Assembly (NCBI GenBank): GCA_949287505.1
Contig: CASEGX010000010.1
Location: forward strand, 3,297 to 67,296
DNA from: an uncultured Spirochaetales bacterium
Lineage (GTDB): Bacteria > Spirochaetota > Spirochaetia > Sphaerochaetales > Sphaerochaetaceae
Direction: 5' to 3'
DNA length: 64,000 nucleotides
Shown here: in pieces, positions 1,229 to 35,285 of the stretch
Layout: every line of letters starts with the position of its first letter
Position numbering within the stretch: the stretch's first letter is position 1
Notes under the pieces: model-generated
Told to the model about the DNA's origin: nothing
Databases searched by the model: none
Seen by the model: the letters and a program-made list of their open reading frames with translations, nothing else
Made by a program: the position numbers and the translations under genes

Positions 1229-2767
1229 TTAGTTTCCCCTCCTTGTCCTTACACTCTCAATGTCCGGAGTAAAGAGCTCTCTCAGATCGTTGAGACCAAG
1301 GTGCATGAGCGCCATCCTGTCGATTCCGAGACCCCAGGCAAGTACAGGTTCCTTTATTCCAAGCGGTTCTGTAACCTCAGGGCGGAAGATTCCGGATCCG
1401 CCAAGCTCAAACCAGCCAAGGACAGGATGCTTGATATGAACCTCAATCGATGGCTCCGTGAACGGGAAATAGCCAGGAACATACTTCACTTCCTCGGCTC
1501 CCGCAATTTCCTCTGCGAACATCTTAAGAAGGCCGAGAAGGTTCTTGAGATTGACATCCTTTCCGATGACAATACCCTCTGTCTGATAGAAATCAGCACC
1601 ATGTGTGGCATCCACCTGATCATATCTGAAGCAGCGGACGACACCGAAATACTTTCCAGGAATATGTGCCTTTGTAAGCTGATGAGCCGAAAGGACAGTT
1701 CCCTGGCTTCTCAGGACCTGGCGACGCGTGAATTCGTGATCGAACTCATATCCCCATCCGCGGGAACCTGTTGTCCATCCATTTTCATGGGTGGCTGCTA
1801 CCTGACTGAGCCAAGGTTCGTCTATCTTCTTCGCATGCACAGGATCCTTGACATAGTAGACATCGTGGATATCACGGGCAGAATGGAACTGCGGCATAAA
1901 GAGTGCATCGCCATTCCAGAACTCATTCTCTACAAGCGGTCCGTCAAATTCCTCGAAACCGAGAGAGATAAGCTTGTTCTTCACCCACTCAAGATACTCC
2001 GAATATGCATTTCTTCTTCCAGGAATGAGGCGTGAAACAGGAGCATTGATTCCATAAGGACGGAAGGTACCGTTCTTCCAGGCTCCGGACTGCAGCATCT
2101 GGGGCGTGAGGACACCGAACTCCTCTCCTGTTATGTTTGCTTTTATTACAGCTTCCTTTGTCTCTTCGCCAAGAGATGTAAGACGATAGACAATGACATC
2201 ACGTTCCTGAATGCGGAACGGTGAGGAGGAAGCACCTCTCTTCTTTGCAAGAGGGGCTATAGCCTTCTTCTCATCAGCGGACAAATCGCTCTCATCAAGA
2301 CTTCCGCTTTCTGCAGCTTTATCAAGGAGGGAGCGCTGGATCTTTATCTCTTCAGGAAGCTCTCCGGCAACCTCTGCTTTTCGCTCTTCATTCAGACGGA
2401 GCGCGCCTTTTGAAGAAAGAAGGCCGAAAGCAGAACCTACATCGCTCTTCTCAAGTCCAAGAGCCTCAGCAATCTCCGGCATAGTAAAGGCACCTTTCTC
2501 GCTCAGGAAAGCGTGGATACGCTCTGCAGGCAGTCCCTGTTCCTTCATTGTCCGTCCTGTATCTGTCAGCTCATAGATGGTCTTCTTTACTCTGGAGACC
2601 TCTTCAAGGCAGCCTTTTGCTGTAAGCCATGAGAATGACTGGTTGCACTGCCCTACCTTATATCCCAGACCGCTGATGATTTTCTCTTCGGTGATATCCT
2701 CTCCGGCATTCACATACCTCAGAAGCTTCACTTCCAGCGGGTGCAGGTTCTTAACATCGATACTCAT
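1229..2767 (-). CDS. pheS: phenylalanine--tRNA ligase alpha subunit, long archaeal/eukaryal/spirochaetal type
   Basis: 512-aa ORF with N-terminal helix-turn-helix-like repeats and a class II core (FRYDQVDATHGADFYQTEG, GYFPFTEPS, GSGIFRPEV, AWGLGIDR). A GGAG lies upstream of the ATG. Confidence 0.93.
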   Translation of the reverse strand: MSIDVKNLHPLEVKLLRYVNAGEDITEEKIISGLGYKVGQCNQSFSWLTAKGCLEEVSRVKKTIYELTDTGRTMKEQGLPAERIHAFLSEKGAFTMPEIAEALGLEKSDVGSAFGLLSSKGALRLNEERKAEVAGELPEEIKIQRSLLDKAAESGSLDESDLSADEKKAIAPLAKKRGASSSPFRIQERDVIVYRLTSLGEETKEAVIKANITGEEFGVLTPQMLQSGAWKNGTFRPYGINAPVSRLIPGRRNAYSEYLEWVKNKLISLGFEEFDGPLVENEFWNGDALFMPQFHSARDIHDVYYVKDPVHAKKIDEPWLSQVAATHENGWTTGSRGWGYEFDHEFTRRQVLRSQGTVLSAHQLTKAHIPGKYFGVVRCFRYDQVDATHGADFYQTEGIVIGKDVNLKNLLGLLKMFAEEIAGAEEVKYVPGYFPFTEPSIEVHIKHPVLGWFELGGSGIFRPEVTEPLGIKEPVLAWGLGIDRMALMHLGLNDLRELFTPDIESVRTRRGN

Positions 2768-2822
2768 AATCTCTCTGCTCCTTCGGAAATACAGAGTGAT
2801 TATATTGATTATCAGAGGAAAA

Positions 2823-4766
2823 TCAAAGGGAAAGAAGGCGATAGGCTGAATCTCTTATGTCCTCTTCACTGACAAGAACCATTTCCTCAAGGCTTCTCGG
2901 ACAGGGAAGCGGTACAGGAAGGGCGGAAAGCACCTCGATACAGCCGGGTTTGTATGAAGATGAGGATGAGAGAATGGAGACAACGCTTTCAGCAATGCTT
3001 CCCTGAAGCGGTGTATCCTCTACAATCAGGGCCTTTCCGATTCTCCCGAACTCTTTCAGGATTGTCTTTTCATCAAGGGGATGGATGGTTGCAAGATCAA
3101 GCATCGTAATGGAATCAGAGATGGAGGAAAGCGCCTTTCTCGCCACTGCAAATGGCCGCGAATAGCCTATTACAAGCAATCTGTCACCGCTTCCATGGAC
3201 AATGGCCTTCCCGATCGGGAGATACGTACAGCTGTCTCCAATATCTCCTTCATCATTATAAAGCGCCTTATGCTCGAAAAAGAGTACAGGATTACCATCC
3301 TTTGCGGCACTCTTGAGAAGGGCTTTGGCAGAGAAAGCATCAGAGGGAGCTACTACCTTGAGTCCCGGAATATTCAGAAACATTGATTCCAGGCACTGTG
3401 TATGCTGCGGTCCATGCCCTGTCATTCCCCCGATCGGAGCACGGACCACCATCGGACAGGAAAGCTGACCGCCAGACATGAAACGTGCTTTTGCCGCGTG
3501 ATTTATAATCGCATCAGAGACAAGCGTGGAGAAGTCACCATACATGATCTCAACAACAGGATGCAGCGACAGCATCGCCGCACCTGCAGCCATGGATGTA
3601 AAGCCTTCCTCTGAAACAGGAGTCTCCAATACCTGATCTGGATACTGTCTGTAAAGATTTCCAGTCACCCCGAAGCAGCCACCGTAAACTCCTATATCCT
3701 CGCCCATCAGGAAGGCTTTGCTGTCATTGGAGAGAATCTCGTCAAGTGCCTCCCTTATTGCACTACGGTAAGTTCCACGATGCGTGCAGCCACTGCCCCC
3801 TGCACGGAAAGATGAAGGCACATATACAAGACTCTCCATCTCCGAGCAACTGACTCTCTCATCTTTGACACTAAGTGCCCTTTCAAGCGCATCGTCGACT
3901 TCCGCTCTGACCTCATTCCTGATTTCCGCCAGTTCCTCTGCACTGGAAATAGAAGAGAGCTGGAGAAAACTGGAAAACAGAGCAATCGGATCCTTCTCCT
4001 TCCATTCAGCCTCCTCTCCGCGTGTCCGGTAAAGGAGCTTGTCAGAGCGGCTATGCCCACAAAGGCGGTATGTCTCTGCCTCGATGAAATATGGCGTATG
4101 ATCCCTGAGAATATGCTCACGGGCCTCCTTCACGGCCTCCTCGACAGCAAGTACATCATTGCCATCAATCCTGATAGAGGGAATCCTGAACCCCTCTGCC
4201 CTTCTGTATATACCATCTGCAGCTATCATCCTCTCAGCAGATGCAGACATTCCATAATGATTGTTCTCAAGGAGGAAAAGAAGCGGGAGGTGCCAGATCG
4301 ATGACGCGTTCATCACCTCGTACAGTATACCACGCGAGGAAGCTCCGTCTCCGAAGATAGCAACGGAGATTGCATCCCTCCCCATCCTCTTCAGCGCAAG
4401 GGCAGCACCACCGGCAAGACCTATTCCCGAGCCGACAACAGCAGAGGACCCGAGATTGCAGGTTTCCGTATCCGTCATATGCATGGAACCACCGAGCCCT
4501 TTGCAAAGACCATGCCGTGAGCCAAGGACTTCGGAGAACATACGGAATAAATCTGAGCCTCTGGCTGCATTATAACCATGGCATCGATGTGTAGGGACAA
4601 TCCAGTCATCTGGAGAAAGGGAGGCAGCAAGACCGGACGAGACAGCTTCCTGCCCTATTGAGAGATGATATGTACCATAAATGAGGCCTTCCGATGAAAG
4701 TCTTTCAAGTGCCTCTTCAAAATATCTTGAACGAAGCATCGAAGAGAAAAGAGAAAGATAATCCAT
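2823..4766 (-). CDS. TPP-dependent 2-oxoacid (pyruvate/acetoin/branched-chain type) dehydrogenase E1 component, fused alpha-beta subunits
   Basis: The N-terminal half looks like E1-alpha (GDGASSRG, ENNHYGMS). The C-terminal half looks like E1-beta (GEDIGVYGG, ETPVSEEGF, transketolase-like C-terminus). I chose the start at ATG 4766 because GGAGG lies 6 nt upstream and it avoids overlap with the upstream gene. Confidence 0.85.
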   Translation of the reverse strand: MDYLSLFSSMLRSRYFEEALERLSSEGLIYGTYHLSIGQEAVSSGLAASLSPDDWIVPTHRCHGYNAARGSDLFRMFSEVLGSRHGLCKGLGGSMHMTDTETCNLGSSAVVGSGIGLAGGAALALKRMGRDAISVAIFGDGASSRGILYEVMNASSIWHLPLLFLLENNHYGMSASAERMIAADGIYRRAEGFRIPSIRIDGNDVLAVEEAVKEAREHILRDHTPYFIEAETYRLCGHSRSDKLLYRTRGEEAEWKEKDPIALFSSFLQLSSISSAEELAEIRNEVRAEVDDALERALSVKDERVSCSEMESLVYVPSSFRAGGSGCTHRGTYRSAIREALDEILSNDSKAFLMGEDIGVYGGCFGVTGNLYRQYPDQVLETPVSEEGFTSMAAGAAMLSLHPVVEIMYGDFSTLVSDAIINHAAKARFMSGGQLSCPMVVRAPIGGMTGHGPQHTQCLESMFLNIPGLKVVAPSDAFSAKALLKSAAKDGNPVLFFEHKALYNDEGDIGDSCTYLPIGKAIVHGSGDRLLVIGYSRPFAVARKALSSISDSITMLDLATIHPLDEKTILKEFGRIGKALIVEDTPLQGSIAESVVSILSSSSSYKPGCIEVLSALPVPLPCPRSLEEMVLVSEEDIRDSAYRLLSL

Positions 4767-4779
4767 CAAAGCCTCCGCC

Positions 4780-5274
4780 TCAGTTGATATACACACCCAG
4801 AATGCGTCCGATGAACATTCTGTGCCAGTCCTCCTGAGGATAAAGGCTCTTTATCTCATCGTCAATCAATGTGCTCCCATCCAGCACAGTACCGGCAATC
4901 TTCTGGCATGTCATGATGAGGTTCGCCTCCTCAAATGCCACTCCGCCATCGAGCTCGAAAGGCGTTATTCCCGCTTTCAAGGCCTTATCCGTATCACGCC
5001 CTGATACAGAGCCACAGAAATCCAGCACGCTCTTTTTTTCCGGAGGAAAGAAAGACAAGGTGAAAACACCGGAGCGTTCCATCACCTGCAGTGTATAGCG
5101 TTCTTTCCTCACAAAGACAAATGCCGCAGGATCATTCCATATATATCCAAGCGCTCCCCATCCTGCAGTCATCGTATTCCAGTCCGAGGCACCACCTGCA
5201 GTAAGAAGGAAATTATCATTACCTATTACCGTGAACGGATTGAGTTCAAGCTGATCAAAACCTATTTTCTGCAT
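4780..5274 (-). CDS. flavin reductase-like (FMN-binding split-barrel) domain protein
   Basis: 164-aa ORF starting MQKIGFDQLELNPFTVIG... with a Flavin_Reduct-like layout. AAGGAGG precedes ATG 5274. The stop lies 13 nt before the E1 start, so the two are probably co-transcribed. Confidence 0.7.
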   Translation of the reverse strand: MQKIGFDQLELNPFTVIGNDNFLLTAGGASDWNTMTAGWGALGYIWNDPAAFVFVRKERYTLQVMERSGVFTLSFFPPEKKSVLDFCGSVSGRDTDKALKAGITPFELDGGVAFEEANLIMTCQKIAGTVLDGSTLIDDEIKSLYPQEDWHRMFIGRILGVYIN

Positions 5275-5946: not shown

Positions 5947-6516
5947 ATGATCGATAAATTCTATGTCAGCTACAATACCGTTCACAAGCTAATAAAGAAA
6001 CTTGCGAAGAAGATTGAGGAATCAGGATTCGATCCTGATGTGATAGTCGCTATCGGATCGGGTGGTTTCATACCTGCAAGAATCATCAAGACATTCATCA
6101 ACCGTCCAATCTATGCAGTCGGAATATCCTACTATGGAATGGATCACAAGCACCGTGAGCATCCAACGAAAATCCAGTGGATTGATGAGGTCCAGTCACA
6201 ACTGAGAGGAAAGAATGTCCTCTTGATCGATGAAGTTGATGACACACGTGCAACGCTGGGATACTGCGTGGGAGAACTTCTTTCATATGAGCCGAAGGAG
6301 ATTGCGGTCCTCGTCCTTCACAACAAGCTCAAGAAGAAGGATGTAGAATTCCCTCCAGAGATTAAAAGATACTATCCTGCCCTCGAGATCGAGGACCTGT
6401 GGATAAAATATCCATGGGATGCCGATGATATCGATGAGCATGCAGAGAAAGAGAAAGAGATGTTCGCAGAACTGAAGAAAATGGGAAAGGAGGATTTACT
6501 AAATGGAATCATATAA
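5947..6516 (+). CDS. second purine phosphoribosyltransferase, yeast Hpt1-like HGPRT/XPRT type
   Basis: YVSYNTVHKL, VIVAIGSGGFIPARIIKTF, NVLLIDEVDDTRATL and WIKYPWD closely parallel the S. cerevisiae Hpt1 motifs as I recall them. The start is 1 nt after the hpt stop. Confidence 0.8.
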   Translation: MIDKFYVSYNTVHKLIKKLAKKIEESGFDPDVIVAIGSGGFIPARIIKTFINRPIYAVGISYYGMDHKHREHPTKIQWIDEVQSQLRGKNVLLIDEVDDTRATLGYCVGELLSYEPKEIAVLVLHNKLKKKDVEFPPEIKRYYPALEIEDLWIKYPWDADDIDEHAEKEKEMFAELKKMGKEDLLNGII

Positions 6517-7789
6517 TGTTAATGCAGTAGTTGGAGTCCAGTGGGGCGACGAGGGAAAAGGCCGCATCGTGGATTACCTTGCATCCGATGCGGAGCTTGT
6601 CATCCGCTTTCAGGGTGGTGACAACGCCGGACATACTGTAATAAACGAGCACGGCAAATTCGGACTTCACATTCTCCCCAGCGGAATATTCAATCCTGAC
6701 ACAATGAATATCGTGGGGGCTGGCACTGTCGTAAATTTTGACAGGATGCATGAAGAGCTTGAGGATATAAGAAAAACAGCCGGCCTTGAAATTGACAATG
6801 TATTCATCGATGAAAGAGCGCATATCATAATGCCATACCACATGGCTCTGGATGGAGCTGAGGAAGGAAAGCGCAGCGATAAAGAGAAAATCGGAACGAC
6901 CAAGCGTGGAATAGGCCCATGCTACTCCGACAAAGCTGCAAGAATGGGCATAAGAGCTGCAGATATCATGGATGAGGAAAGACTCAAGGAAAGGCTTTCT
7001 CTGATCCTCCCTAAGAAGAACAGGGATCTTGAATACTATGGCCTCGATACCGTCACTCTGGATGACATGCTTGCAAAATGTGCGCTCTGGAGAAAGGAGT
7101 TCGGTGACCATATCATCGATGCAGCACCAGTAATCAGGGATGCGGTAGAGAGCGGAAAGAAAATACTTCTCGAAGGCCAGCTTGGCATTATGAGGGACAA
7201 CGACTGGGGAATCTATCCTTATACGACATCCTCCAATCCGACCGTCTCCGGAGGCTGCAATGGAGCTGGAATCCCACCCCGCTGCATTTCCAAGGTTGTG
7301 GGTGTTGCCAAGGCCTATTCAACCTCCGTCGGTGGTGGTCCGTACATGACTGAGCTTTTTGACAAGGACGGTGAGAAACTGAGGGACATCGGGCATGAAT
7401 ATGGTGTTACGACAGGCCGCCCAAGAAGATGCGGCTGGTTCGATGCAGTTGCTGCAGACTTCGCATGCTATATGAACGGAGTTACGGATATTGCCCTCAC
7501 AAAGCTTGATGTGCTTGATACATTCGAGAAGATCAAAGTCTGTACAGGCTATATGATCGACGGCGAATATTACAGCCATCTTCCAGAAACAAGGCTACAG
7601 GAAAGAGCAAAGCCGATTTACGAGACATTCGATGGATGGATGACGGACACAACAGGCTGCCGCAGATGGGAAGAGCTCCCGGAGAATGCGAAGACATACA
7701 TTCTCGCCCTCGAGAAGATGATGAACACGCATATTACATACATCTCTGTAGGCCCTGAGCGCGACCAGCTGATCATCCGCGAAAAATAA
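6503..7789 (+). CDS. purA: adenylosuccinate synthetase
   Basis: Motifs GVQWGDEGKGRIVD, GGDNAGHTV and TTKRGIGPCY over a 428-aa ORF. Confidence 0.96.
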   Translation: MESYNVNAVVGVQWGDEGKGRIVDYLASDAELVIRFQGGDNAGHTVINEHGKFGLHILPSGIFNPDTMNIVGAGTVVNFDRMHEELEDIRKTAGLEIDNVFIDERAHIIMPYHMALDGAEEGKRSDKEKIGTTKRGIGPCYSDKAARMGIRAADIMDEERLKERLSLILPKKNRDLEYYGLDTVTLDDMLAKCALWRKEFGDHIIDAAPVIRDAVESGKKILLEGQLGIMRDNDWGIYPYTTSSNPTVSGGCNGAGIPPRCISKVVGVAKAYSTSVGGGPYMTELFDKDGEKLRDIGHEYGVTTGRPRRCGWFDAVAADFACYMNGVTDIALTKLDVLDTFEKIKVCTGYMIDGEYYSHLPETRLQERAKPIYETFDGWMTDTTGCRRWEELPENAKTYILALEKMMNTHITYISVGPERDQLIIREK

Positions 7790-29283: not shown

Positions 29284-30084
29284 CTATGCTTTCACAGATT
29301 TCACTAATGAAGCGACGATAAAAATCACCATATGCACCACCACGATGCTTGCACCTGTCGGAAGAGAGAATGCATATGAAAGGAGAAAACCTGCAAGGAA
29401 TGCAATCAAAGCCTCTGCAGCCGCAACTACGGATACCTTCAGATATGTCTTCTCAATCTTCATGGCAACTGCCGCAGGAAAAATGATCAGGCTGGAAATC
29501 AGAAGAGAGCCAAGAATTCTCATTCCGACTACAATCACAAGCGCAGTAAGCAGAGACAGTAAAGCTGTATAACGCCTCGTGTTTATTCCTGTTGCTCTTG
29601 CAAAGGAAGAGTCAAATGTCGTGGCATAGATCTGATGATAGAAAATCACATAGGAAAAAAGTGTGGCTATTGAGATTACGGCAGCAATCACTCCATCGGT
29701 TTTTGAAACAGAAAGAATGGAGCCGAAAAGAAATGCATTCAGGTCAGTATTCACTCCCGCAATCGAGACTGCAATGACACCGAGTGCAAGTGCAGAAGAA
29801 GATATAAGTGCAATCGCACTGTCGCCACCGCGCTTACCTTCTGAAATACGAAGCAATACAAAAGCAGCTATCACTACAACAGGGATCGTGACCACCATCG
29901 GTTGCAGGGAAAGAAGGGCCGAAAGTCCCAATGCGCCGAACCCTACATGAGACAGTCCGTCTCCGATCATCGAAAAGCGTCTGAGCACAAGACTCACACC
30001 CAATAAGGAAGCCGCTATTGAGACACAAAGACCTACAAGCAATGCCCTCACAAGAAATGGATAGGAAAGAATCTCACTTATCAT
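29284..30084 (-). CDS. znuB: metal (zinc) ABC transporter permease, ABC-3 family
   Basis: 266-aa polytopic protein in an operon with the ATPase and a ZnuA-like SBP. Confidence 0.88.
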   Translation of the reverse strand: MISEILSYPFLVRALLVGLCVSIAASLLGVSLVLRRFSMIGDGLSHVGFGALGLSALLSLQPMVVTIPVVVIAAFVLLRISEGKRGGDSAIALISSSALALGVIAVSIAGVNTDLNAFLFGSILSVSKTDGVIAAVISIATLFSYVIFYHQIYATTFDSSFARATGINTRRYTALLSLLTALVIVVGMRILGSLLISSLIIFPAAVAMKIEKTYLKVSVVAAAEALIAFLAGFLLSYAFSLPTGASIVVVHMVIFIVASLVKSVKA

Positions 30085-30781
30085 GCCCTGCCTCCTTCAT
30101 GAAAGTCTTACCTGCATCGGAGTGAAAATACTTCTCCTTAGGGCCGAAGAAATAACCGTTATGGGAGAAGTGGAGTATTGTGCGTGCATCATGCAGAACC
30201 GGATGAATGTCATGGGTAACCATCATTATCGTGATTCCCGAAGCATTCAGATTACGCAGAATTCCGTACAGCTCACTTGTAGTCTTCACATCAAGATTGG
30301 CAACAGGCTCATCAAGGAATATGAGCTTCTCAGTCGCCATGAGCGCTCTGGCAAGCAACACCCTCTGCTGCTGTCCACCGGAGAGTTCCTGGAAAGAAAC
30401 TGAAGCGTAGCCAGACATGCCCATTCTCTCAAGCTCCTCTGAAGCTCTCTTTTTTTCCGCTTTTGTATAGAACAAGGCCCTGTGTCTGTTGAGGCAGCCG
30501 GAAAGAACAACCTCCATCACAGAGGAGGGGAAATCACGCTGTATGCCGGAAACCTGCGGGAAATACCCTATTTCAGTCCTTTTCAGGCCACCGCAGTATT
30601 CAATTCTTCCTTTCAGGGGCTCAACCAGGCCAAGAACGGTTTTCACGAAGGTGCTTTTCCCAGAGCCATTCTCACCGACGATGCAGAGATAGTCTCCATC
30701 ACTGACAGAGAATGAGAGTCCGGAGATAATTCCCTGCCCCTCATAACCAAGTGTCAGATCCTCTCCATGTATCAGTATCAA
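30074..30781 (-). CDS. znuC: metal (zinc) ABC transporter ATP-binding protein
   Basis: Walker A GENGSGKST, signature LSGGQQQR and Walker B LIFLDEP. Confidence 0.92.
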   Translation of the reverse strand: MILIHGEDLTLGYEGQGIISGLSFSVSDGDYLCIVGENGSGKSTFVKTVLGLVEPLKGRIEYCGGLKRTEIGYFPQVSGIQRDFPSSVMEVVLSGCLNRHRALFYTKAEKKRASEELERMGMSGYASVSFQELSGGQQQRVLLARALMATEKLIFLDEPVANLDVKTTSELYGILRNLNASGITIMMVTHDIHPVLHDARTILHFSHNGYFFGPKEKYFHSDAGKTFMKEAGHDK

Positions 30782-31707
30782 TTCAAAGCCTCCTGCAGCA
30801 CACTGATGTTCTCACCCATCAGATCAACATAATCCTTGCCGCTCAGATAATCAGCAGCACTGACATTGTGAAGTGTATTGAAAACCCTCACCCCGCATCC
30901 CGCCTCTTCTGCAATGACACGGGCTATCATCGGAGAGGACATCTCTATTGTCAGAATACACGGGACTTCAAGTTCTCTTGCCTTATCGATAAGGAATGCC
31001 ACCGTACGGGCACTGGGCTCACTTTCCTCTGCACAGCCGGGGAATGCCGCATAATATTCCAGCCCGTATTCGCGGACAAAATACAGAAGAGGAAAACGTG
31101 AGGCGAAAATAAGGATATTTCTCTCAGCACTCTCAACAATGCTTCTGAACTGCCTGTCCAGTTCTTCTATCCTGGAAATATACTCTTCTGCATTTTTCTC
31201 ATAAGAAGCTGCGTTCTCTGCATCAAGGGAGGAAAGGAGACGGGAAAGATTCTCAATGATCCTGATCTCATTCAGAGGGCTCGTCCATACATGCTCATCG
31301 ACTTCATGAACACTGTGATCATGCTCCTCTTCCTCCTCCATGCCTTCCCTGTGCTCCTCATATAGAAGCTCCACCTGGTCGGTAAGCGCAAATGATGATG
31401 GCGGATTATCCAGGGATGATAAAATAGTCCGCACCCACTCATCCGAAGGACCGCCTGTGTAGATGACAAGATCGCTTTCCGCAATTCTCACCATATCACG
31501 CGGAGTCGGATCATAGCTGTGGCTCTCCGTCCCTGGAGGAAGAAGCATCACAAGGTTGTCATCATTCCCGAGAACAGCACGTGCAGCATCAAACGACGGG
31601 AAATCTGCGGCAACAACGGAGAATGCATCATCTGTCTCAATCTGAGTCCTTGCACAGGAAGTGATGACAAGCAATATGACAACAGCAAGAATAAGGGCCC
31701 TTCTCAT
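30778..31707 (-). CDS. znuA: zinc ABC transporter substrate-binding lipoprotein with an acidic/His-rich loop
   Basis: Lipobox LVITSC and a loop EEEEEHDHSVHEVDEHVW typical of ZnuA. ATG 31707 overlaps the zur stop (ATGA). Confidence 0.88.
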   Translation of the reverse strand: MRRALILAVVILLVITSCARTQIETDDAFSVVAADFPSFDAARAVLGNDDNLVMLLPPGTESHSYDPTPRDMVRIAESDLVIYTGGPSDEWVRTILSSLDNPPSSFALTDQVELLYEEHREGMEEEEEHDHSVHEVDEHVWTSPLNEIRIIENLSRLLSSLDAENAASYEKNAEEYISRIEELDRQFRSIVESAERNILIFASRFPLLYFVREYGLEYYAAFPGCAEESEPSARTVAFLIDKARELEVPCILTIEMSSPMIARVIAEEAGCGVRVFNTLHNVSAADYLSGKDYVDLMGENISVLQEALN

Positions 31708-32078
31708 TTCCGGCAATCCCTGCAAAGCCCTTCAAAAACAGTACTCTCAAGCGCTACAAATCCGGATGCAGCCTCAACAAGCTTCTCGATATCATGAGTG
31801 GTCTTTGCATCCAGGTGCTCCGTGCGTCCGCATTCCCGGCATCTGATGTGCATATGTCCATGGCATTCTGCTCCCTGGTACTGATAAATGCTCTTACGCC
31901 CTTCCGTACCGTTCTTTCTCACAACACCCTCATCCGCAAGATGGGAAATCAGCCTATAGACCGTAGAACGCGGCACATCAGGAAGCGCAGATGCCACATC
32001 ATCAGGAGTGAAGCCCCTCTCCTGATGGTGTTCGAAAAAGGATGTGACAGCACTTTTCTGCTTTGTGTTGTAGCTCAT
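31704..32078 (-). CDS. zur: Fur-family metalloregulator, probable Zur
   Basis: 124 aa with two CxxC pairs (CRECGRTEHL, CRDCRK) and a winged-helix N-terminus. It is the first gene of the znu operon. Confidence 0.85.
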   Translation of the reverse strand: MSYNTKQKSAVTSFFEHHQERGFTPDDVASALPDVPRSTVYRLISHLADEGVVRKNGTEGRKSIYQYQGAECHGHMHIRCRECGRTEHLDAKTTHDIEKLVEAASGFVALESTVFEGLCRDCRK

Positions 32079-32115: not shown

Positions 32116-32827
32116 GGACTTTTCTGGCTTTTTCCACCTCGTTTGTTATAAGACCCTCAATTCCCCAGTCATGACAGCGCCTCATCTCACTCTCATCATT
32201 GACTGTCCATACATTGATCCTCACGCCACTCTCATGAAGCTCACCGACACTCTCGTCATCAAGCAGTTTGAATGATGGATGATAGCATTCCAGGCCTGCG
32301 CTTCTTATCTCACGTCCTATCCCACGGAGTTTCATGCCATCAAAAAGCAGACCGACGGGGAAGGATGGAGCTATCTGCCGGATCCGGAAGATGGAAAGCC
32401 AGTTGAATGATGAGAAGACAATCCTATCCTCAACGCCTGCCTTTCGCACAAGATCAATGGCCTTCTCTTCGATGCCTGGATAGCATACAGGTACTGTCTT
32501 AAGCTCGATGTTCGTGTAAAGCCTTGTGCCTTTGATCATCTCAAGATACTCCTCAAGCGACGGGACAGGCGTGAAGCCAAAAGCATCATTCTTTGTCTTT
32601 CCTGCGCTTATCTTCTCAAGTTCTGACCGTGTGTAATCAAAGACAAAGCCATCCACGCCGGCTGTACGCATAAGGCTTTCATCATGAATGATCATCACCT
32701 CTCCGTCTTTAGAAAGATGTATGTCGAGTTCGATGGCTGCTGCACCATGCTCCACAGCCTTCCGAAAGCTGAGCATTGTATTTTCAGGGTATGCTCCGCT
32801 GTAACCCCTGTGTGCGATAATATCCAT
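32102..32827 (-). CDS. glycerophosphodiester phosphodiesterase (cytoplasmic UgpQ/GlpQ type)
   Basis: Sequence MDIIAHRGYSGAYPENT and HDESLMRT. I chose ATG 32827, which gives the family-typical N-terminus and size. The track's TTG start at 32890 is unlikely. Confidence 0.88.
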   Translation of the reverse strand: MDIIAHRGYSGAYPENTMLSFRKAVEHGAAAIELDIHLSKDGEVMIIHDESLMRTAGVDGFVFDYTRSELEKISAGKTKNDAFGFTPVPSLEEYLEMIKGTRLYTNIELKTVPVCYPGIEEKAIDLVRKAGVEDRIVFSSFNWLSIFRIRQIAPSFPVGLLFDGMKLRGIGREIRSAGLECYHPSFKLLDDESVGELHESGVRINVWTVNDESEMRRCHDWGIEGLITNEVEKARKVLDAI

Positions 32828-32858
32828 ATATAATAAATCATGTGCATATGAAGAAAAT

Positions 32859-32887
32859 TTGACAACTTCCCCATCCCTTGCGATATT
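32859..32887 (+). promoter_or_regulatory. promoter TTGACA-17 nt-GATATT for the Zn-ribbon/DUF5685/J-protein operon
   Basis: Consensus -35. The -10 ends 6 nt before ATG 32894 and there is no SD. Confidence 0.6.
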
Positions 32888-32893
32888 CAATTT

Positions 32894-33301
32894 ATGAATA
32901 ATGGCTTTTTCTCAGGCCGTAATGGCTCTGATGCACTATCCGTATTTCTTACTGCCTTGGCCCTTGTAACCGCTACAGCTGCTTCCGTGATAACAACAGA
33001 GACAGCAAGAATCATAGTCTCGCTTGCAGCTGCCGTGCTGATTGCTCTTGCTGCATGGAGAATGCTGAGCAGGAATATTGCAAAACGCAGGGTCGAGAAC
33101 GAGAGATTCCTTTCATTCTTCCGCTCTTTCAGCAAGGACCCGCAGAAAGCTGAGGAGAAAAAGCGGAAGAAAGAAGAGAGAAAGACCCATGCATATTTCA
33201 AATGCCCGGAATGCAAGAAGGAACTCAGAGTCCCCAGAGGCAAGGGAAAGATCAGAATAACATGCCCGCACTGCGGACACCAGTTCATAAAGAAGACCTG
33301 A
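32894..33301 (+). CDS. membrane protein with two N-terminal TM helices, a basic linker and a C-terminal zinc ribbon
   Basis: Hydrophobic segments FLTALALVTATAASVI and IIVSLAAAVLIALAAW. Lys/Glu-rich linker. Zinc ribbon CPECKKELRVPRGKGKIRITCPHCGHQF. Confidence 0.75.
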   Translation: MNNGFFSGRNGSDALSVFLTALALVTATAASVITTETARIIVSLAAAVLIALAAWRMLSRNIAKRRVENERFLSFFRSFSKDPQKAEEKKRKKEERKTHAYFKCPECKKELRVPRGKGKIRITCPHCGHQFIKKT

Positions 33302-33302
33302 T

Positions 33303-34100
33303 ATGTTCGGTTATGTCCTTGCGAATGCCTCGTCGCTGTCAAAAGAGGAAAAGGAAATCTACAAAGCTCATTACTGCGGACTGTGCCACGTCCTGAGAGA
33401 ACGTTATGGGCAGAAAGCCATAATGGCGCTCTCCTATGACATGGTCTTTCTTGAGATGGTACTCTCTGATCTCACGGATGCCACAGAGACAAAAGGGGCC
33501 GAAAGATGCGTTCCGCACCCTGTGAAGGAACATGCGTATACCATCACGCCTTGCACAGAGTATGCCGCCGATATGCAGATGCTTCTGGGATACTACTCAC
33601 TTCTGGATAAGGTCAGGGATGAGGGAAAAGGAAAGAGCGAGGAGAAGAAAATGCGCTCTCTCCTCCCGGACCTTGAGAAGAAGTATCCGCGTATTGCTGA
33701 AAGCATAAGAAACGGGCTTGCCCTCATCGGAGAGAACGAAGACATAAACTCCAAGGATGCGGAGGGGATGTCGCTTCTTTTCGGCAAAATACTGGGAGAG
33801 GTCTTCGTATATGATGAGAGTTCGTTCTTCTCGGATGACCTAAGAGGACTTGGCTGTGGTCTCGGCCGTTTCATCTATCTTCTCGATGCCTGGTGCGACA
33901 GGAAAAAGGATGAGAAGGAAGGCGCGTACAACCCCCTGGAAAAAGGGATAACAGAAGACCAGATGCGCCAGTTGCTCCTGGACGCAGCAGCAGCCGCCTC
34001 CGATGCTTTTGAGCGCCTGCCACTTGATCAGCATGTTTTCATTCTGAGAAATATCCTATACAGTGGAATCTGGTCAAAATTCAAGGAAGAGAAAAAGTGA
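33303..34100 (+). CDS. DUF5685-like protein (uncharacterised)
   Basis: The N-terminus MFGYVLANASSLSKEEKEIYKAHYCGLCHVL matches the DUF5685 N-terminal pattern as I recall it. It starts 1 nt after the upstream stop. Confidence 0.7.
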   Translation: MFGYVLANASSLSKEEKEIYKAHYCGLCHVLRERYGQKAIMALSYDMVFLEMVLSDLTDATETKGAERCVPHPVKEHAYTITPCTEYAADMQMLLGYYSLLDKVRDEGKGKSEEKKMRSLLPDLEKKYPRIAESIRNGLALIGENEDINSKDAEGMSLLFGKILGEVFVYDESSFFSDDLRGLGCGLGRFIYLLDAWCDRKKDEKEGAYNPLEKGITEDQMRQLLLDAAAAASDAFERLPLDQHVFILRNILYSGIWSKFKEEKK

Positions 34101-34681
34101 ACGATCCATACAGCGTCCTTGGTCTGAAGCCGGACGCCTCCGATGAAGAGGTCAAGAAGGCTTACAAGACCCTGGCTAAGAAATACCATCCTGATGTTGC
34201 TGGAAACAGCCCCGAAGCTGCACGGAAGATGCAGGAAATCAATGCAGCCTATGACCAGATCATCAACCATAAGGACAGCTTCTCAGGCCAGGCACAGGGT
34301 TATGGGTACGGCTACAATGGCTACCGCTCAAGCGGAGATGAGGAACCGATTGAGCTCAGGGCTGCTGTCGCATATATAAATGCAAGACGCTTTATGGAAG
34401 CACTTAATGCCCTCCGTTCGGTTCCCGAGGCGAAAAGATCCGGCAGATGGTACTATCTTGCAGCATATGCAGAGGCACATACAGGAGACACCGTAAGCGC
34501 CATGCGTGATATAGAAACCGCTATAAGAAAAGAGCCGGGGAATGCGACATACCACGCATTCAGAGACCGGCTTACAGGAAGGAGGACAGCGTACGAGGAC
34601 TACTCAAGATCTTTCGGAGGAATCAGTACAGGATTCTTCCCATGCTGTTTCCCGTTCTTCCCCTGCTGCTGTATTATCTGA
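34097..34681 (+). CDS. J-domain protein with TPR-like middle region and C-terminal cysteine string
   Basis: J domain DPYSVLGLKPDASDEEVKKAYKTLAKKYHPD. C-terminus FFPCCFPFFPCCCII. The GTG start overlaps the upstream stop (GTGA). Confidence 0.85.
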   Translation: MNDPYSVLGLKPDASDEEVKKAYKTLAKKYHPDVAGNSPEAARKMQEINAAYDQIINHKDSFSGQAQGYGYGYNGYRSSGDEEPIELRAAVAYINARRFMEALNALRSVPEAKRSGRWYYLAAYAEAHTGDTVSAMRDIETAIRKEPGNATYHAFRDRLTGRRTAYEDYSRSFGGISTGFFPCCFPFFPCCCII

Positions 34682-35285
34682 CGAGTTCTGTAATCTGCCT
34701 TATCGCACCACCTGTTATTCTTGTCAGAAGCTCTGGAAGATCAGAAAGCGAGACAGGCACAGCGTCACAAAGGACATCCGCATAGACATCGAGGATACCG
34801 GCAACAAGGAAATCGAGCGTCCCCACCAGTTCTGCACGCTTCACTGTATCGGTCGCAAGATGCTGGAATGCTGTTGTTTTCATCAGATACTTGTCGATGA
34901 TATCAAACCGGTGCTCCATCACGTTCTTTCTGAACTCCTCTACAGAAAGAAGCAGACGATAATATTCACTATCCTTTTCCAGCATTGCTGAAAGCGCTTC
35001 AAAAAGCATTCTCGGATTGGCCAGTACGACATCGGGAGAAAGGCCTGTGAAGGCCTCTTTCAGATCTGTTATGGCAATCTCCTTTATAGATGACAGGACT
35101 TCTTCCGTGTCACGGAAATGGGCATAGAATGTTCCTCTGTTGATATCTGCAGTCCTGACAATATCCGTTATCGTGATCTTCTCAAATGGCTTGGAACGCA
35201 TCAAAGTGATAAGCGCTTCGCGAATGAGGCGCTTGGAACGCAGTGAGCTCCGGTATTCAGCCTTCGTTCGTCTCTTCTCTTCCAT
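34674..35285 (-). CDS. TetR/AcrR family transcriptional regulator
   Basis: N-terminal HTH (ITITDIVRTADINRGTFYAHF). GGGGAGG lies upstream. Confidence 0.88.
   Translation of the reverse strand: MEEKRRTKAEYRSSLRSKRLIREALITLMRSKPFEKITITDIVRTADINRGTFYAHFRDTEEVLSSIKEIAITDLKEAFTGLSPDVVLANPRMLFEALSAMLEKDSEYYRLLLSVEEFRKNVMEHRFDIIDKYLMKTTAFQHLATDTVKRAELVGTLDFLVAGILDVYADVLCDAVPVSLSDLPELLTRITGGAIRQITELVR

Follow-up and report, generated by a model that had tools for sequence, protein, structure and literature searches.

A compact module of three genes of unknown function was examined within a 64,000-nt stretch (the window) of contig CASEGX010000010.1 (assembly GCA_949287505.1), from an uncultured Spirochaetales bacterium. 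The three genes, designated here g1, g2 and g3, lie on the + strand, are flanked by opposite-strand genes and neighbor zur-znuACB (Table 1). A single base (33302) separates g1 from g2, whereas the GTG start of g3 overlaps the TGA stop of g2 as GTGA.

Table 1. Features of the three-gene module (positions are those of the window).
Feature	Coordinates	Strand	Description
Sigma-70-type promoter	32859-32887	+	-35 TTGACA (32859-32864), 17-nt spacer ending in TGc, -10 GATATT (32882-32887) ending 6 nt before the g1 ATG
g1	32894-33301	+	135 aa, ATG start; N-terminal FxxGRxGxDxL motif, two hydrophobic (TM) segments (aa 14-36 and 40-56), basic FRMLSRNxxKRxxEN stretch, K/E-rich linker and C-terminal CPxC...CPxC putative zinc ribbon (aa 103-131)
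g1 putative zinc ribbon	33200-33286	+	C104, C107, C124 and C127 (C104PEC...C124PHC); predicted to be cytoplasmic by the positive-inside rule
g2	33303-34100	+	265 aa, ATG start; soluble DUF5685 protein (PF18937)
g2 putative metal site	33375-33533	+	C25-G-L-C28 on helix 1; C69, H72 and H77 in the beta hairpin
g2 first acidic motif	33606-33620	+	D102-x3-D106, at the C-terminal end of helix 83-107
g2 second acidic motif	33885-33935	+	D195-x3-D199-x3-D203, followed by N210-P211, on helix 177-206
g3	34097-34681	+	194 aa, GTG start within GTGA, preceded by AAGGAAGAG; class-C J-domain protein
g3 J domain	34103-34264	+	aa 3-56; HPD motif at aa 31-33 (34187-34195)
g3 TPR-like domain	34349-34576	+	aa 85-160, five helices, after a disordered G/Y-rich linker (aa 62-82)
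g3 cysteine-string tail	34604-34678	+	Hydrophobic tail (...GFFPCCFPFFPCCCII); Cys at 183, 184, 190, 191 and 192

The promoter matches the consensus in 10 of 12 positions and is TG-extended. A single consensus hit is not beyond chance in this sequence, because we found seven promoter-like sites against 4.2 +/- 1.7 in shuffled sequences. However, the same arrangement, with a -35 box, a 17-18 nt spacer, (G/C)ATATT and 6-7 nt to the ATG, recurs in seven other spirochaete loci whose DUF5685 proteins are 40-84% identical. Since no Shine-Dalgarno sequence can fit between the -10 box and the ATG, this conserved geometry suggests that the transcript is leaderless, and offers a clean candidate for a leaderless mRNA in Spirochaetes.

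Conservation and composition of the module

We examined 164 DUF5685 loci from Clostridia, gut Spirochaetes and Coriobacteriia-like bacteria. A homolog of g3, with J, TPR-like and Cys-tail regions, lies directly downstream of the DUF5685 gene in 155 of these loci, comprising 78 of the 78 genome loci that have sequence there and 77 of 83 metagenome loci. The start of g3 overlaps the end of g2 in 121 of 147 loci, and lies within 20 nt in 139, suggesting that both genes are usually translationally coupled. Homologs of g1 were present in 103 of 164 loci; in the remainder, about a third and many of them short contigs, this gene was missing, and it is sometimes moved or replaced by a different membrane protein. 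No other neighbor family occurred in more than about 11 of the 80 genome loci, no integrase or transposase family recurred among the neighbors, and the synteny with zur-znuACB is confined to close relatives. No fusions of g2 with g3 or g1 appeared among the top 150 representatives, in which one long form (P0224) looks like a frameshift read-through and the others have low-complexity tails or insertions. These results support the initial annotation, which proposed a translationally coupled three-gene module, correctly assigned g2 to DUF5685 and considered that the J domain implies recruitment of DnaK, probably to the membrane, although the membrane location, which fits the two-TM g1 and the hydrophobic Cys tail, is not proven.

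The link with Hsp70 now has genomic support, because a DnaK-type Hsp70 gene adjoins the module in 22 loci, in the orders g1-g2-g3-hsp70, g2-g3-hsp70-g1 or hsp70-g2-g3-g1. These Hsp70s score 813-866 bits on the DnaK model PRK00290, but sit near the TIGR02350 cut-off of 822.55 (792.8 and 838.5 bits), and we interpret them as divergent DnaK paralogs. They lie outside a grpE/dnaJ context, as judged by eye on the few flanking genes inspected, such as a TetR-family gene following the Hsp70 gene in one locus.

The membrane protein g1 and the J protein g3

The hydrophobic segments of g1 reach KD19 values of up to 2.3, and its four Cys are invariant in the alignment of the family, although all zinc-ribbon profile matches fall below threshold (Zn_ribbon_4, 22.1 bits against a cut-off of 30.3; TIGR02098, 17.3 against 20.9). 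The g1 family comprises at least 6837 clusters at 90% identity, almost none of them carrying a Pfam domain.

The J domain of g3 matches PF00226 with E 5.2e-18 (65.3 bits against a cut-off of 27.8), and the HPD motif is present in 77/77 homologs. Matches to the DnaJ models cover only residues 1-60, with 58 bits against a cut-off of 377, and there are no DnaJ_C or DnaJ_CXXCXGXG hits; therefore, g3 is a class C J protein. Likewise, NCBIfam matches to DjlA, HscB, CbpA and ActJ cover only the J domain and fall far below their cut-offs. The TPR-like block was modeled by AF2 as five paired helices with pLDDT of about 80-87, although its Pfam scores are just below threshold (TPR_15, 24.0 against 26.2; TPR_19, 20.3 against 25).

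The C-terminal tails of the 77 homologs contain 24% Cys against 0.55% in the rest of the protein, a 43-fold enrichment, with a mean KD of +1.06 against -0.91, and a Cys lies within the last three residues in 59/77. Of these tails, 20 end in -CC, 10 in -CCX, 8 in -CCXX and 7 in -CXC. AF2 gave no confident structure for the tail, which is not predicted to be helical. All seven loci carrying the alternative membrane protein have one distinctive tail type, indicating that the tail subtype co-varies with the membrane partner, whereas one clade has acidic tails that look more like metal ligands than lipid acceptors. A search with the C-terminal half of g3 alone reached only 50 close relatives, and these family-wide statements therefore rest on the sets of loci.

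Predicted fold of DUF5685

The g2 product is a full-length member of Pfam DUF5685 (E 6.6e-76, 255.7 bits against a cut-off of 26.7; residues 1-261 on profile positions 1-271 of 272). All 73 aligned relatives also match this family, which comprises 6298 clusters at 50% identity. AF2 predicts with high confidence (pLDDT 91.5, pTM 0.89) an all-helical protein with the class I terpenoid-synthase/trans-isoprenyl-diphosphate-synthase fold. All 50 best Foldseek matches in PDB are FPP, GGPP, octaprenyl or solanesyl diphosphate synthases or MoeN5, with probability up to 1.00 and TMq of 0.5-0.59 for the best-fitting ones. Nevertheless, the E-values are weak (best 2.3e-3, none below 1e-3), and these TM-scores indicate the same general fold, not the same active site. 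No link at the sequence level to any terpene or prenyl synthase family was found with Pfam at E<=10 on 73 members, with a profile search of PDB sequences or with hhalign against E. coli IspA (probability 0.1%), and no natural isoprenyl diphosphate synthase was found in the window or the retrieved loci. The fold assignment therefore rests on the AF2 model and Foldseek alone.

Residues D102, D106, D195, D199, D203 and N210 are invariant in the two alignments examined (24 and 73 sequences), and many aromatic residues are conserved. The two acidic motifs are on helices separated by three helices, as occurs with helices D and H of class I enzymes, so that the first would occupy the position of the first Asp-rich motif on helix D, and the i, i+4, i+8 spacing of the second matches that of an NSE/DTE triad; this equivalence is inferred from helix order and not from a superposition. 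Residues C25, C28 and C69 of the putative Cys3-His site are invariant in 73 sequences, H72 was nearly invariant (>=90%) in the 24-sequence alignment and H77 in both. Helix order suggests that this site lies away from the diphosphate end, which would make it structural rather than thiol-activating.

Proteins with a class I fold, no sequence similarity to known terpene synthases and novel Asp motifs (classes IB-IF) have been shown to be active enzymes (PMC11234867, PMC5939612). The DUF5685 motif Y(L/I)(L/M)DA(W/Y/F)xD resembles the class IB motif DYLDNLXD, although DUF5685 has DxxxD and DxxxDxxxD motifs instead of DDxxD with NSE/DTE, and adds the Cys3-His site, a beta hairpin and an invariant MFGY N-terminus.

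Possible function of the module

Our preferred interpretation is that this self-contained, vertically widespread module encodes a specialized Hsp70 co-chaperone system working at the cytoplasmic face of the membrane. In this model, DUF5685 would bind an allylic prenyl diphosphate (FPP or a longer chain, from the isoprenoid pool of the cell) through Mg2+ held by the two acidic motifs, would be made in a 1:1 ratio with the J protein and be bound by its TPR-like domain, and would alkylate cysteines of the C-terminal string, whose ca. 25 residues are too short and too rich in Gly/Pro/Asn to span the bilayer unaided. The lipidated tail would then anchor the J protein beside g1, or beside the alternative polytopic membrane protein found in some Lachnospiraceae, and the HPD motif would trigger ATP hydrolysis in DnaK, or in the module's own paralog, concentrating Hsp70 activity on a membrane-proximal client. 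We assign to this reading as a whole a probability of around 0.35. The general picture of a dedicated J/Hsp70 module with a partner of predicted terpenoid-synthase fold and a membrane component is more likely than not, but the mechanism is inferred, and S-prenylation of the tail in particular is unlikely, though not excluded. No class I-fold enzyme seems to be known to prenylate cysteine, isoprenoid genes are not generally nearby, and we found no experimental data on the module. A weak hint towards isoprenoids is that the only J-less DUF5685 loci place the gene directly after a ubiE/COQ5 menaquinone-type methyltransferase gene.

Other explanations fit parts of these data, but appear less probable. 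DUF5685 could be a non-canonical terpene synthase or prenyl-lipid enzyme that makes or remodels a membrane isoprenoid, with the J protein, DnaK and g1 serving only to fold it, activate it or deliver it to the membrane, and the cysteine string being an unmodified interfacial anchor. This would agree with the predicted fold, the invariant acidic motifs and aromatic-rich core, the activity of class I enzymes recognized only by structure (PMC11234867), the ubiE-family neighbor and the hydrophobicity of the tail (KD19 1.75). It is nonetheless doubtful, because it does not explain why an enzyme would need its own J protein, carrying a cysteine string, in more than 90% of loci, there are no terpene biosynthetic neighbors in the 80 genome loci, and the tails contain Gly, Pro, Asn and Arg and are not predicted to be helical.

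An arrangement similar to HscB/HscA-IscU, in which DUF5685 would be a metalloprotein client or scaffold presented by the TPR-like domain to Hsp70 for the transfer of a metal or Fe-S cofactor, with the cysteine string and the g1 zinc ribbon as further ligands, is suggested by the conserved Cys clusters of the three proteins, the logic of a dedicated J protein plus Hsp70 paralog, the clade with acidic Cys/Asp/Glu tails, hosts that appear, from record titles, to be gut anaerobes, the neighboring zur-znuACB genes, and a protein, judged by eye to be an Mrp/NBP35-type ATPase, encoded directly upstream in four loci. We consider it unlikely, since the metal-related neighbors are confined to close relatives or a few loci, a pure Cys-ligand role leaves the invariant Asp, Asn and aromatic residues of DUF5685 unexplained, the tails are strongly hydrophobic, seemingly unlike metal-binding Cys-rich peptides, and no similarity to IscU, HscB C-domains or other Fe-S proteins was found. 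Finally, although the module is a small, compact group of genes of unknown function, an accidental or mobile arrangement, such as an anti-phage defense or toxin-type cassette, is effectively refuted by the conservation of the order and overlap of g2 and g3 across Clostridia, Spirochaetes and Coriobacteriia-like bacteria; additionally, a PADLOC search gave no hit for g2 and only weak zinc-ribbon-type matches for g1 and g3 (12.9 bits for the latter).

Relationship to known J proteins

As in the animal cysteine string protein (CSPalpha/DNAJC5), g3 has an N-terminal J domain with HPD, a flexible linker and a hydrophobic run of clustered cysteines that does not form a transmembrane helix; in CSP the string is palmitoylated, targeting the co-chaperone to membranes, where it recruits Hsc70 (PMC4447612). 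However, there is no homology outside the J domain, the bacterial string is at the extreme C-terminus and shorter (3-11 Cys in 25 residues against 12-15), a TPR-like domain replaces the CSP linker and C-domain, and bacteria appear to lack DHHC palmitoyltransferases. Thus, g3 is an analog and not a member of this family, and lipidation of its tail is only hypothesized. The tail endings also recall the S-prenylated C-terminal cysteines of Ydj1/DNAJA1 and of Rab-type CC/CXC motifs, a resemblance that is not in itself a test; eukaryotic protein prenyltransferases are probably alpha-alpha barrel zinc enzymes unrelated to the fold predicted for DUF5685, for which no Pfam prenyltransferase hit was found. 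Among bacterial systems, HscB-HscA and DjlA likewise involve a J protein with a specialized non-J domain, sometimes encoded next to its own Hsp70 paralog or tethered to the inner membrane, but they do not appear to have a cysteine string or a partner with a terpenoid-synthase fold.

The DUF5685 and g1 families occur in abundant gut lineages such as Lachnospiraceae, Oscillospiraceae, Blautia, Agathobacter and Eisenbergiella, yet we found no functional study of either family, only one in-silico paper that merely lists DUF5685, and nothing on bacterial cysteine-string J proteins or on this module. Our analysis turns three hypothetical proteins into a defined system with testable parts: a class-C J protein with a cysteine string, an optional dedicated DnaK paralog, a putative membrane tether, and a partner with a predicted terpenoid-synthase fold and invariant, putatively metal-binding residues. 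If DUF5685 were a protein prenyltransferase acting on the cysteine string, which we regard as improbable but not excluded, gut Clostridia, Spirochaetes and Coriobacteriia would have an endogenous lipidation route anchoring an Hsp70 co-chaperone to the membrane, an independently evolved counterpart of the lipidated eukaryotic J proteins (CSP, Ydj1). This would apparently be the first endogenous bacterial cysteine-prenylation system acting on a protein, and a new reaction type for the class I fold. If this is not the case, the module would still define a new specialized Hsp70 circuit in anaerobes, a group for which few specialized J proteins have been described.

Organization of the operon and its promoter

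The three genes form a stand-alone unit, because the genes on either side run on the opposite strand. A single base separates g1 from g2, whereas the GTG start codon of g3 overlaps the TGA of g2 as GTGA and is preceded by AAGGAAGAG. By inspection of the translations, the upstream genes are glpQ-like, zur-like and znuA/C/B-like, and downstream there are a TetR-like gene, a HAD-like gene and a threonine-dehydratase-like gene. The synteny of the zinc-uptake cluster with the module appears only in close spirochaete relatives and it is thus probably coincidental, despite the many Cys/Zn motifs in the module. The convergent TetR-family gene overlaps the 3′ end of g3 by 8 nt, leaving no room for an intergenic terminator, and the only terminator-like stem lies inside the region coding for the g3 tail. 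Additionally, an antisense ORF spans the whole of g1; this is probably a mechanical by-product of the g1 sequence and not a gene, although it causes naive longest-ORF gene calling to pick the wrong strand here.

A promoter scan identified a TTGACA-17-GATATT sequence with a TG extension. On its own this hit is not statistically remarkable, since 7 sites were found against 4.2 +/- 1.7 in shuffled sequences. However, seven other spirochaete loci, whose DUF5685 proteins are 40-84% identical to that of the window, show the same layout, with TTGAC(N) followed by 17-18 nt, (G/C)ATATT, 6-7 nt and the g1 ATG. The conserved N-terminal motif of g1 begins at residue 5 and no earlier in-frame start exists; the start codon is therefore fixed and no ribosome binding site can fit, from which we infer a leaderless g1 mRNA. 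The glpQ-like gene most likely starts at the ATG encoding MDIIAHRG, and not at an alternative TTG, so that both promoters must be held in a divergent intergenic region of only about 66 nt, where the -35 of the module promoter overlaps promoter-like hexamers on the minus strand.

Coordinates of the features of the module, of its surroundings and of selected homologous loci
Feature	Coordinates	Strand	Description
Zinc-uptake cluster	29284-32078	-	znuB-, znuC- and znuA-like genes plus a Fur/Zur-family regulator; just upstream, beyond the glpQ-like gene
Start of the glpQ-like gene and divergent intergenic region	32825-32893		Most likely ATG at about 32827; alternative TTG at 32890
Promoter of the module	32859-32887		TTGACA-17-GATATT, TG extension
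Antisense ORF	32887-33342	-	151 aa
g1	32894-33301	+	135 aa, ATG
g2 (DUF5685)	33303-34100	+	265 aa, ATG
g3 (J protein)	34097-34681	+	194 aa, GTG
Terminator-like stem	34616-34640		Inside the g3 tail-coding region
Overlap of g3 and the TetR-family gene	34674-34681		8 nt
TetR-family gene	34674-35285	-	Convergent with g3
Locus L155, DUF5685 without an adjacent J gene	1566-3376		Follows a ubiE/COQ5-family methyltransferase gene
Locus L060, alternative membrane protein	6427-6987		~186 aa
Locus L021, Mrp/NBP35-like protein	4033-4872		~279 aa, upstream of DUF5685

Domain composition of the three proteins

The product of g2 is a full-length member of Pfam DUF5685 (E 6.6e-76) and matches no NCBIfam model. 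The g3 product contains a J domain (E 5e-18) with an intact H31-P32-D33 motif, as well as TPR hits that fall just under threshold. In an AF2 model it is resolved into the J domain (residues 1-63), a disordered G/Y-rich linker (62-82), a five-helix TPR-like domain (85-160, pLDDT about 80-87) and an unstructured tail (162-194, pLDDT 32-41). It lacks the DnaJ zinc-finger and C-terminal domains, so it is a class-C J protein and not a member of the canonical DnaJ classes A and B. The g1 product has two hydrophobic segments (residues 14-36 and 40-56) followed by a strongly basic stretch, which puts both termini in the cytoplasm by the positive-inside rule, and then a K/E-rich linker and a CPEC...CPHC motif with only sub-threshold zinc-ribbon matches.

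Conservation of the module

A pattern scan of one genome per GTDB species with a DUF5685 alignment returned 80 loci. Their record titles name Spirochaetales, one Eggerthellaceae bin and many Clostridia, including Lachnospiraceae, Oscillospiraceae, Blautia, Agathobacter, Eisenbergiella and Anaerocolumna. A phmmer search with the window proteins showed that a homologue of g3, matching both the J part and the C-terminal part, lies directly downstream of DUF5685 in all 78 loci that have sequence there. A g1 homologue is present in 62 loci, usually directly upstream, although in five loci it follows g3 and in four it is divergent. All-against-all clustering of the neighbours found no other family in more than about 11 loci, and those few reflect synteny among close relatives. 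Two of the loci (L021 and L026) are labelled Alistipes communis and Bacteroidaceae, but their module and neighbours resemble those of the Clostridia loci, with 41% identity to the query and the same upstream Mrp-like gene as in loci L019 and L035, suggesting mis-binned contigs or horizontal transfer.

A second, independent set of 84 loci, from a divergent DUF5685 subfamily in metagenomes, showed g3 downstream in 77 of 83 usable loci and g1 in 41. Over 147 loci, the start of g3 overlaps the end of g2 in 121, mostly as ATGA or an 8-nt overlap, and lies within 20 nt in 139. The g2-g3 pair is about as tightly linked as prokaryotic gene pairs get. The proposal in the initial annotation of a translationally coupled three-gene module thus withstands the test of co-conservation. 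No genuine g2-g3 fusion was seen among the top 150 representatives; an apparent C-terminal extension of one DUF5685 protein (P0224, 368 aa) reads like an out-of-frame run-through into the downstream gene.

There were a few exceptions. Five near-identical high-GC loci (L155 and four others) contain DUF5685 without a neighbouring J gene; there, it directly follows a ubiE/COQ5-family methyltransferase gene (Pfam E 1.4e-67), with an amidohydrolase gene nearby, which is a weak hint of an isoprenoid-quinone connection. Another locus, L140, appears disrupted after g2.

Association with an Hsp70 gene

In 22 loci, a gene for an Hsp70 of 584-642 aa adjoins the module, in the orders g1-g2-g3-hsp70 (for example, in locus L094), g2-g3-hsp70-g1 (L092) and hsp70-g2-g3-g1 (L057 and L064). 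Two representatives match the DnaK model PRK00290 at 813 and 866 bits, and score 792.8 and 838.5 bits against the TIGR02350 cut-off of 822.55. In the loci inspected they are not flanked by grpE or dnaJ; for instance, in locus L082 the Hsp70 gene is followed by a TetR-family gene, a family that also follows the module in the window. We interpret these proteins as DnaK paralogs dedicated to the module. This is direct genomic support for the inference, made in the initial annotation, that the J domain recruits an Hsp70. The window holds no Hsp70 gene, and the housekeeping DnaK is presumably used in this case.

Predicted terpenoid-synthase fold of DUF5685

Using a 73-sequence alignment, AF2 produced a model of DUF5685 with pLDDT 91.5 and pTM 0.89, containing nine helices plus one beta hairpin at residues 63-81. 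A Foldseek search against the PDB returned only trans-isoprenyl diphosphate synthases and the prenyltransferase MoeN5 among the top 50 hits, including FPP, GGPP, octaprenyl and solanesyl diphosphate synthases and CrtE. Probabilities reach 1.00 and TM-scores are 0.5-0.59 for the best superpositions, although the E-values are modest (2.3e-3 at best). Judging by helix order, the invariant residues appear to fit that fold, although the acidic motifs are non-canonical: D102xxxD106 sits at the C-terminal end of helix 83-107, and D195xxxD199xxxD203, followed by N210-P211, sits on helix 177-206, which lies three helices later, as helices D and H do in class I enzymes. Besides, there are many conserved Tyr, Phe and Trp residues, and R130 is nearly invariant. 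The i, i+4, i+8 spacing of the second motif matches an NSE/DTE triad, and its sequence, Y(L/I)(L/M)DA(W/Y/F)xD, recalls the class IB motif DYLDNLXD (PMC11234867), although this resemblance is only a lead.

DUF5685 also has features of its own. Residues C25, C28 and C69 are invariant, whereas H72 was nearly invariant in a 24-sequence alignment and H77 in both alignments; together, they look like a Cys3-His metal site bridging helix 1 and the hairpin. The N-terminus, M-F-G-Y, is almost invariant. No sequence-based method linked DUF5685 to known synthases, and it does not belong to the sequence-defined terpene synthase families. Nevertheless, there is precedent for active class I-fold enzymes that are recognisable only by structure (PMC11234867, PMC5939612).

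A cysteine string at the C-terminal end of the J protein

All 77 complete g3 homologues of the first set of loci keep the HPD motif. Their last 25 residues are 24% Cys (3-11 per tail), against 0.55% in the rest of the protein, and have a mean Kyte-Doolittle score of +1.06, against -0.91, with a high content of Gly, Leu and Phe and almost no charged residues. A Cys occurs within the last three residues in 59 of 77 homologues, with endings of -CC (20), -CCX (10), -CCXX (8), -CXC (7) or -CXCX (5). The second set shows the same pattern, often as C-x2-3-C-hydrophobic-x-(N/Q)-hydrophobic-hydrophobic-C-x-CC, followed by a Gly-rich turn and a terminal -CC. These stretches are too short and too rich in Gly, Pro and Asn to be ordinary transmembrane helices, and AF2 gives them no structure. 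The closest analogue appears to be the palmitoylated cysteine string of animal CSP/DNAJC5 (PMC4447612), although the g3 product is not a member of the CSP family.

Variation of the membrane component

The g1 family is large, with at least 6837 clusters at 90% identity, and almost none of its members carries a Pfam domain. Its conserved features are FxxGRxGxDxL, two TM segments, FRMFSRNxxKRxxEN and YxCPxCxxxxRVPRGKGKIxIxCPKC. In seven Lachnospiraceae-type loci that lack g1 (such as L060), a different polytopic membrane protein with no Pfam match overlaps the end of g3. All seven share one distinctive acidic tail, CCDLWCADSLCECMGGDLCxCM, and tail type and membrane partner therefore change together; however, these loci may form a single clade, so the correlation is only suggestive. 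In four other loci that lack g1 (L019, L021, L026 and L035), a protein that looks by eye like an Mrp/NBP35-type P-loop ATPase (Fe-S carrier family) is encoded directly upstream of DUF5685, on the same strand.

Possible role of the module

The module is conserved, with a J domain that is intact, an Hsp70 linked to it in some lineages, a predicted class I fold with acidic motifs in g2, a hydrophobic Cys tail in g3 and a membrane hairpin in g1. From this we infer that DUF5685 may bind a prenyl diphosphate through Mg2+ and associate with the TPR-like domain of the J protein, and the tight translational coupling fits a stoichiometric complex. The cysteine string would be the acceptor of the prenyl group, and lipidation would place the J domain at the membrane next to g1, where it recruits DnaK to a still unknown client. 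We assign to the general architecture a probability of about 0.6, whereas we consider the S-prenylation step unlikely. The link to terpenoid synthases is at fold level only, with weak Foldseek E-values, and the active-site geometry is only presumed; judging by helix order, the Cys3-His site is probably remote from the diphosphate end. Furthermore, one clade has acidic tails, and no class I enzyme appears to be known to prenylate Cys.

We consider none of the other explanations likely. DUF5685 could make a membrane terpenoid, with the chaperone parts merely servicing it, and this is the least improbable of the alternatives. Less likely would be a metal or Fe-S hand-over similar to that of HscB/HscA-IscU, using the three Cys clusters. 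A mobile or defence cassette is very improbable, because a PADLOC search was negative and the conservation of the module argues against it.

Full-text searches found one paper that merely lists DUF5685 (PMC9403866) and nothing on the operon. The system may work like a lipid-anchored or membrane-tethered J protein (CSP, Ydj1, DjlA) combined with a dedicated Hsp70 pair (HscB/HscA), to which it adds a partner with a predicted terpenoid-synthase fold, a combination that to our knowledge has not been described. We regard it as a variant of the specialised J-protein/Hsp70 systems, with a small chance that it is something categorically new, namely bacterial protein S-prenylation by a class I-fold enzyme.
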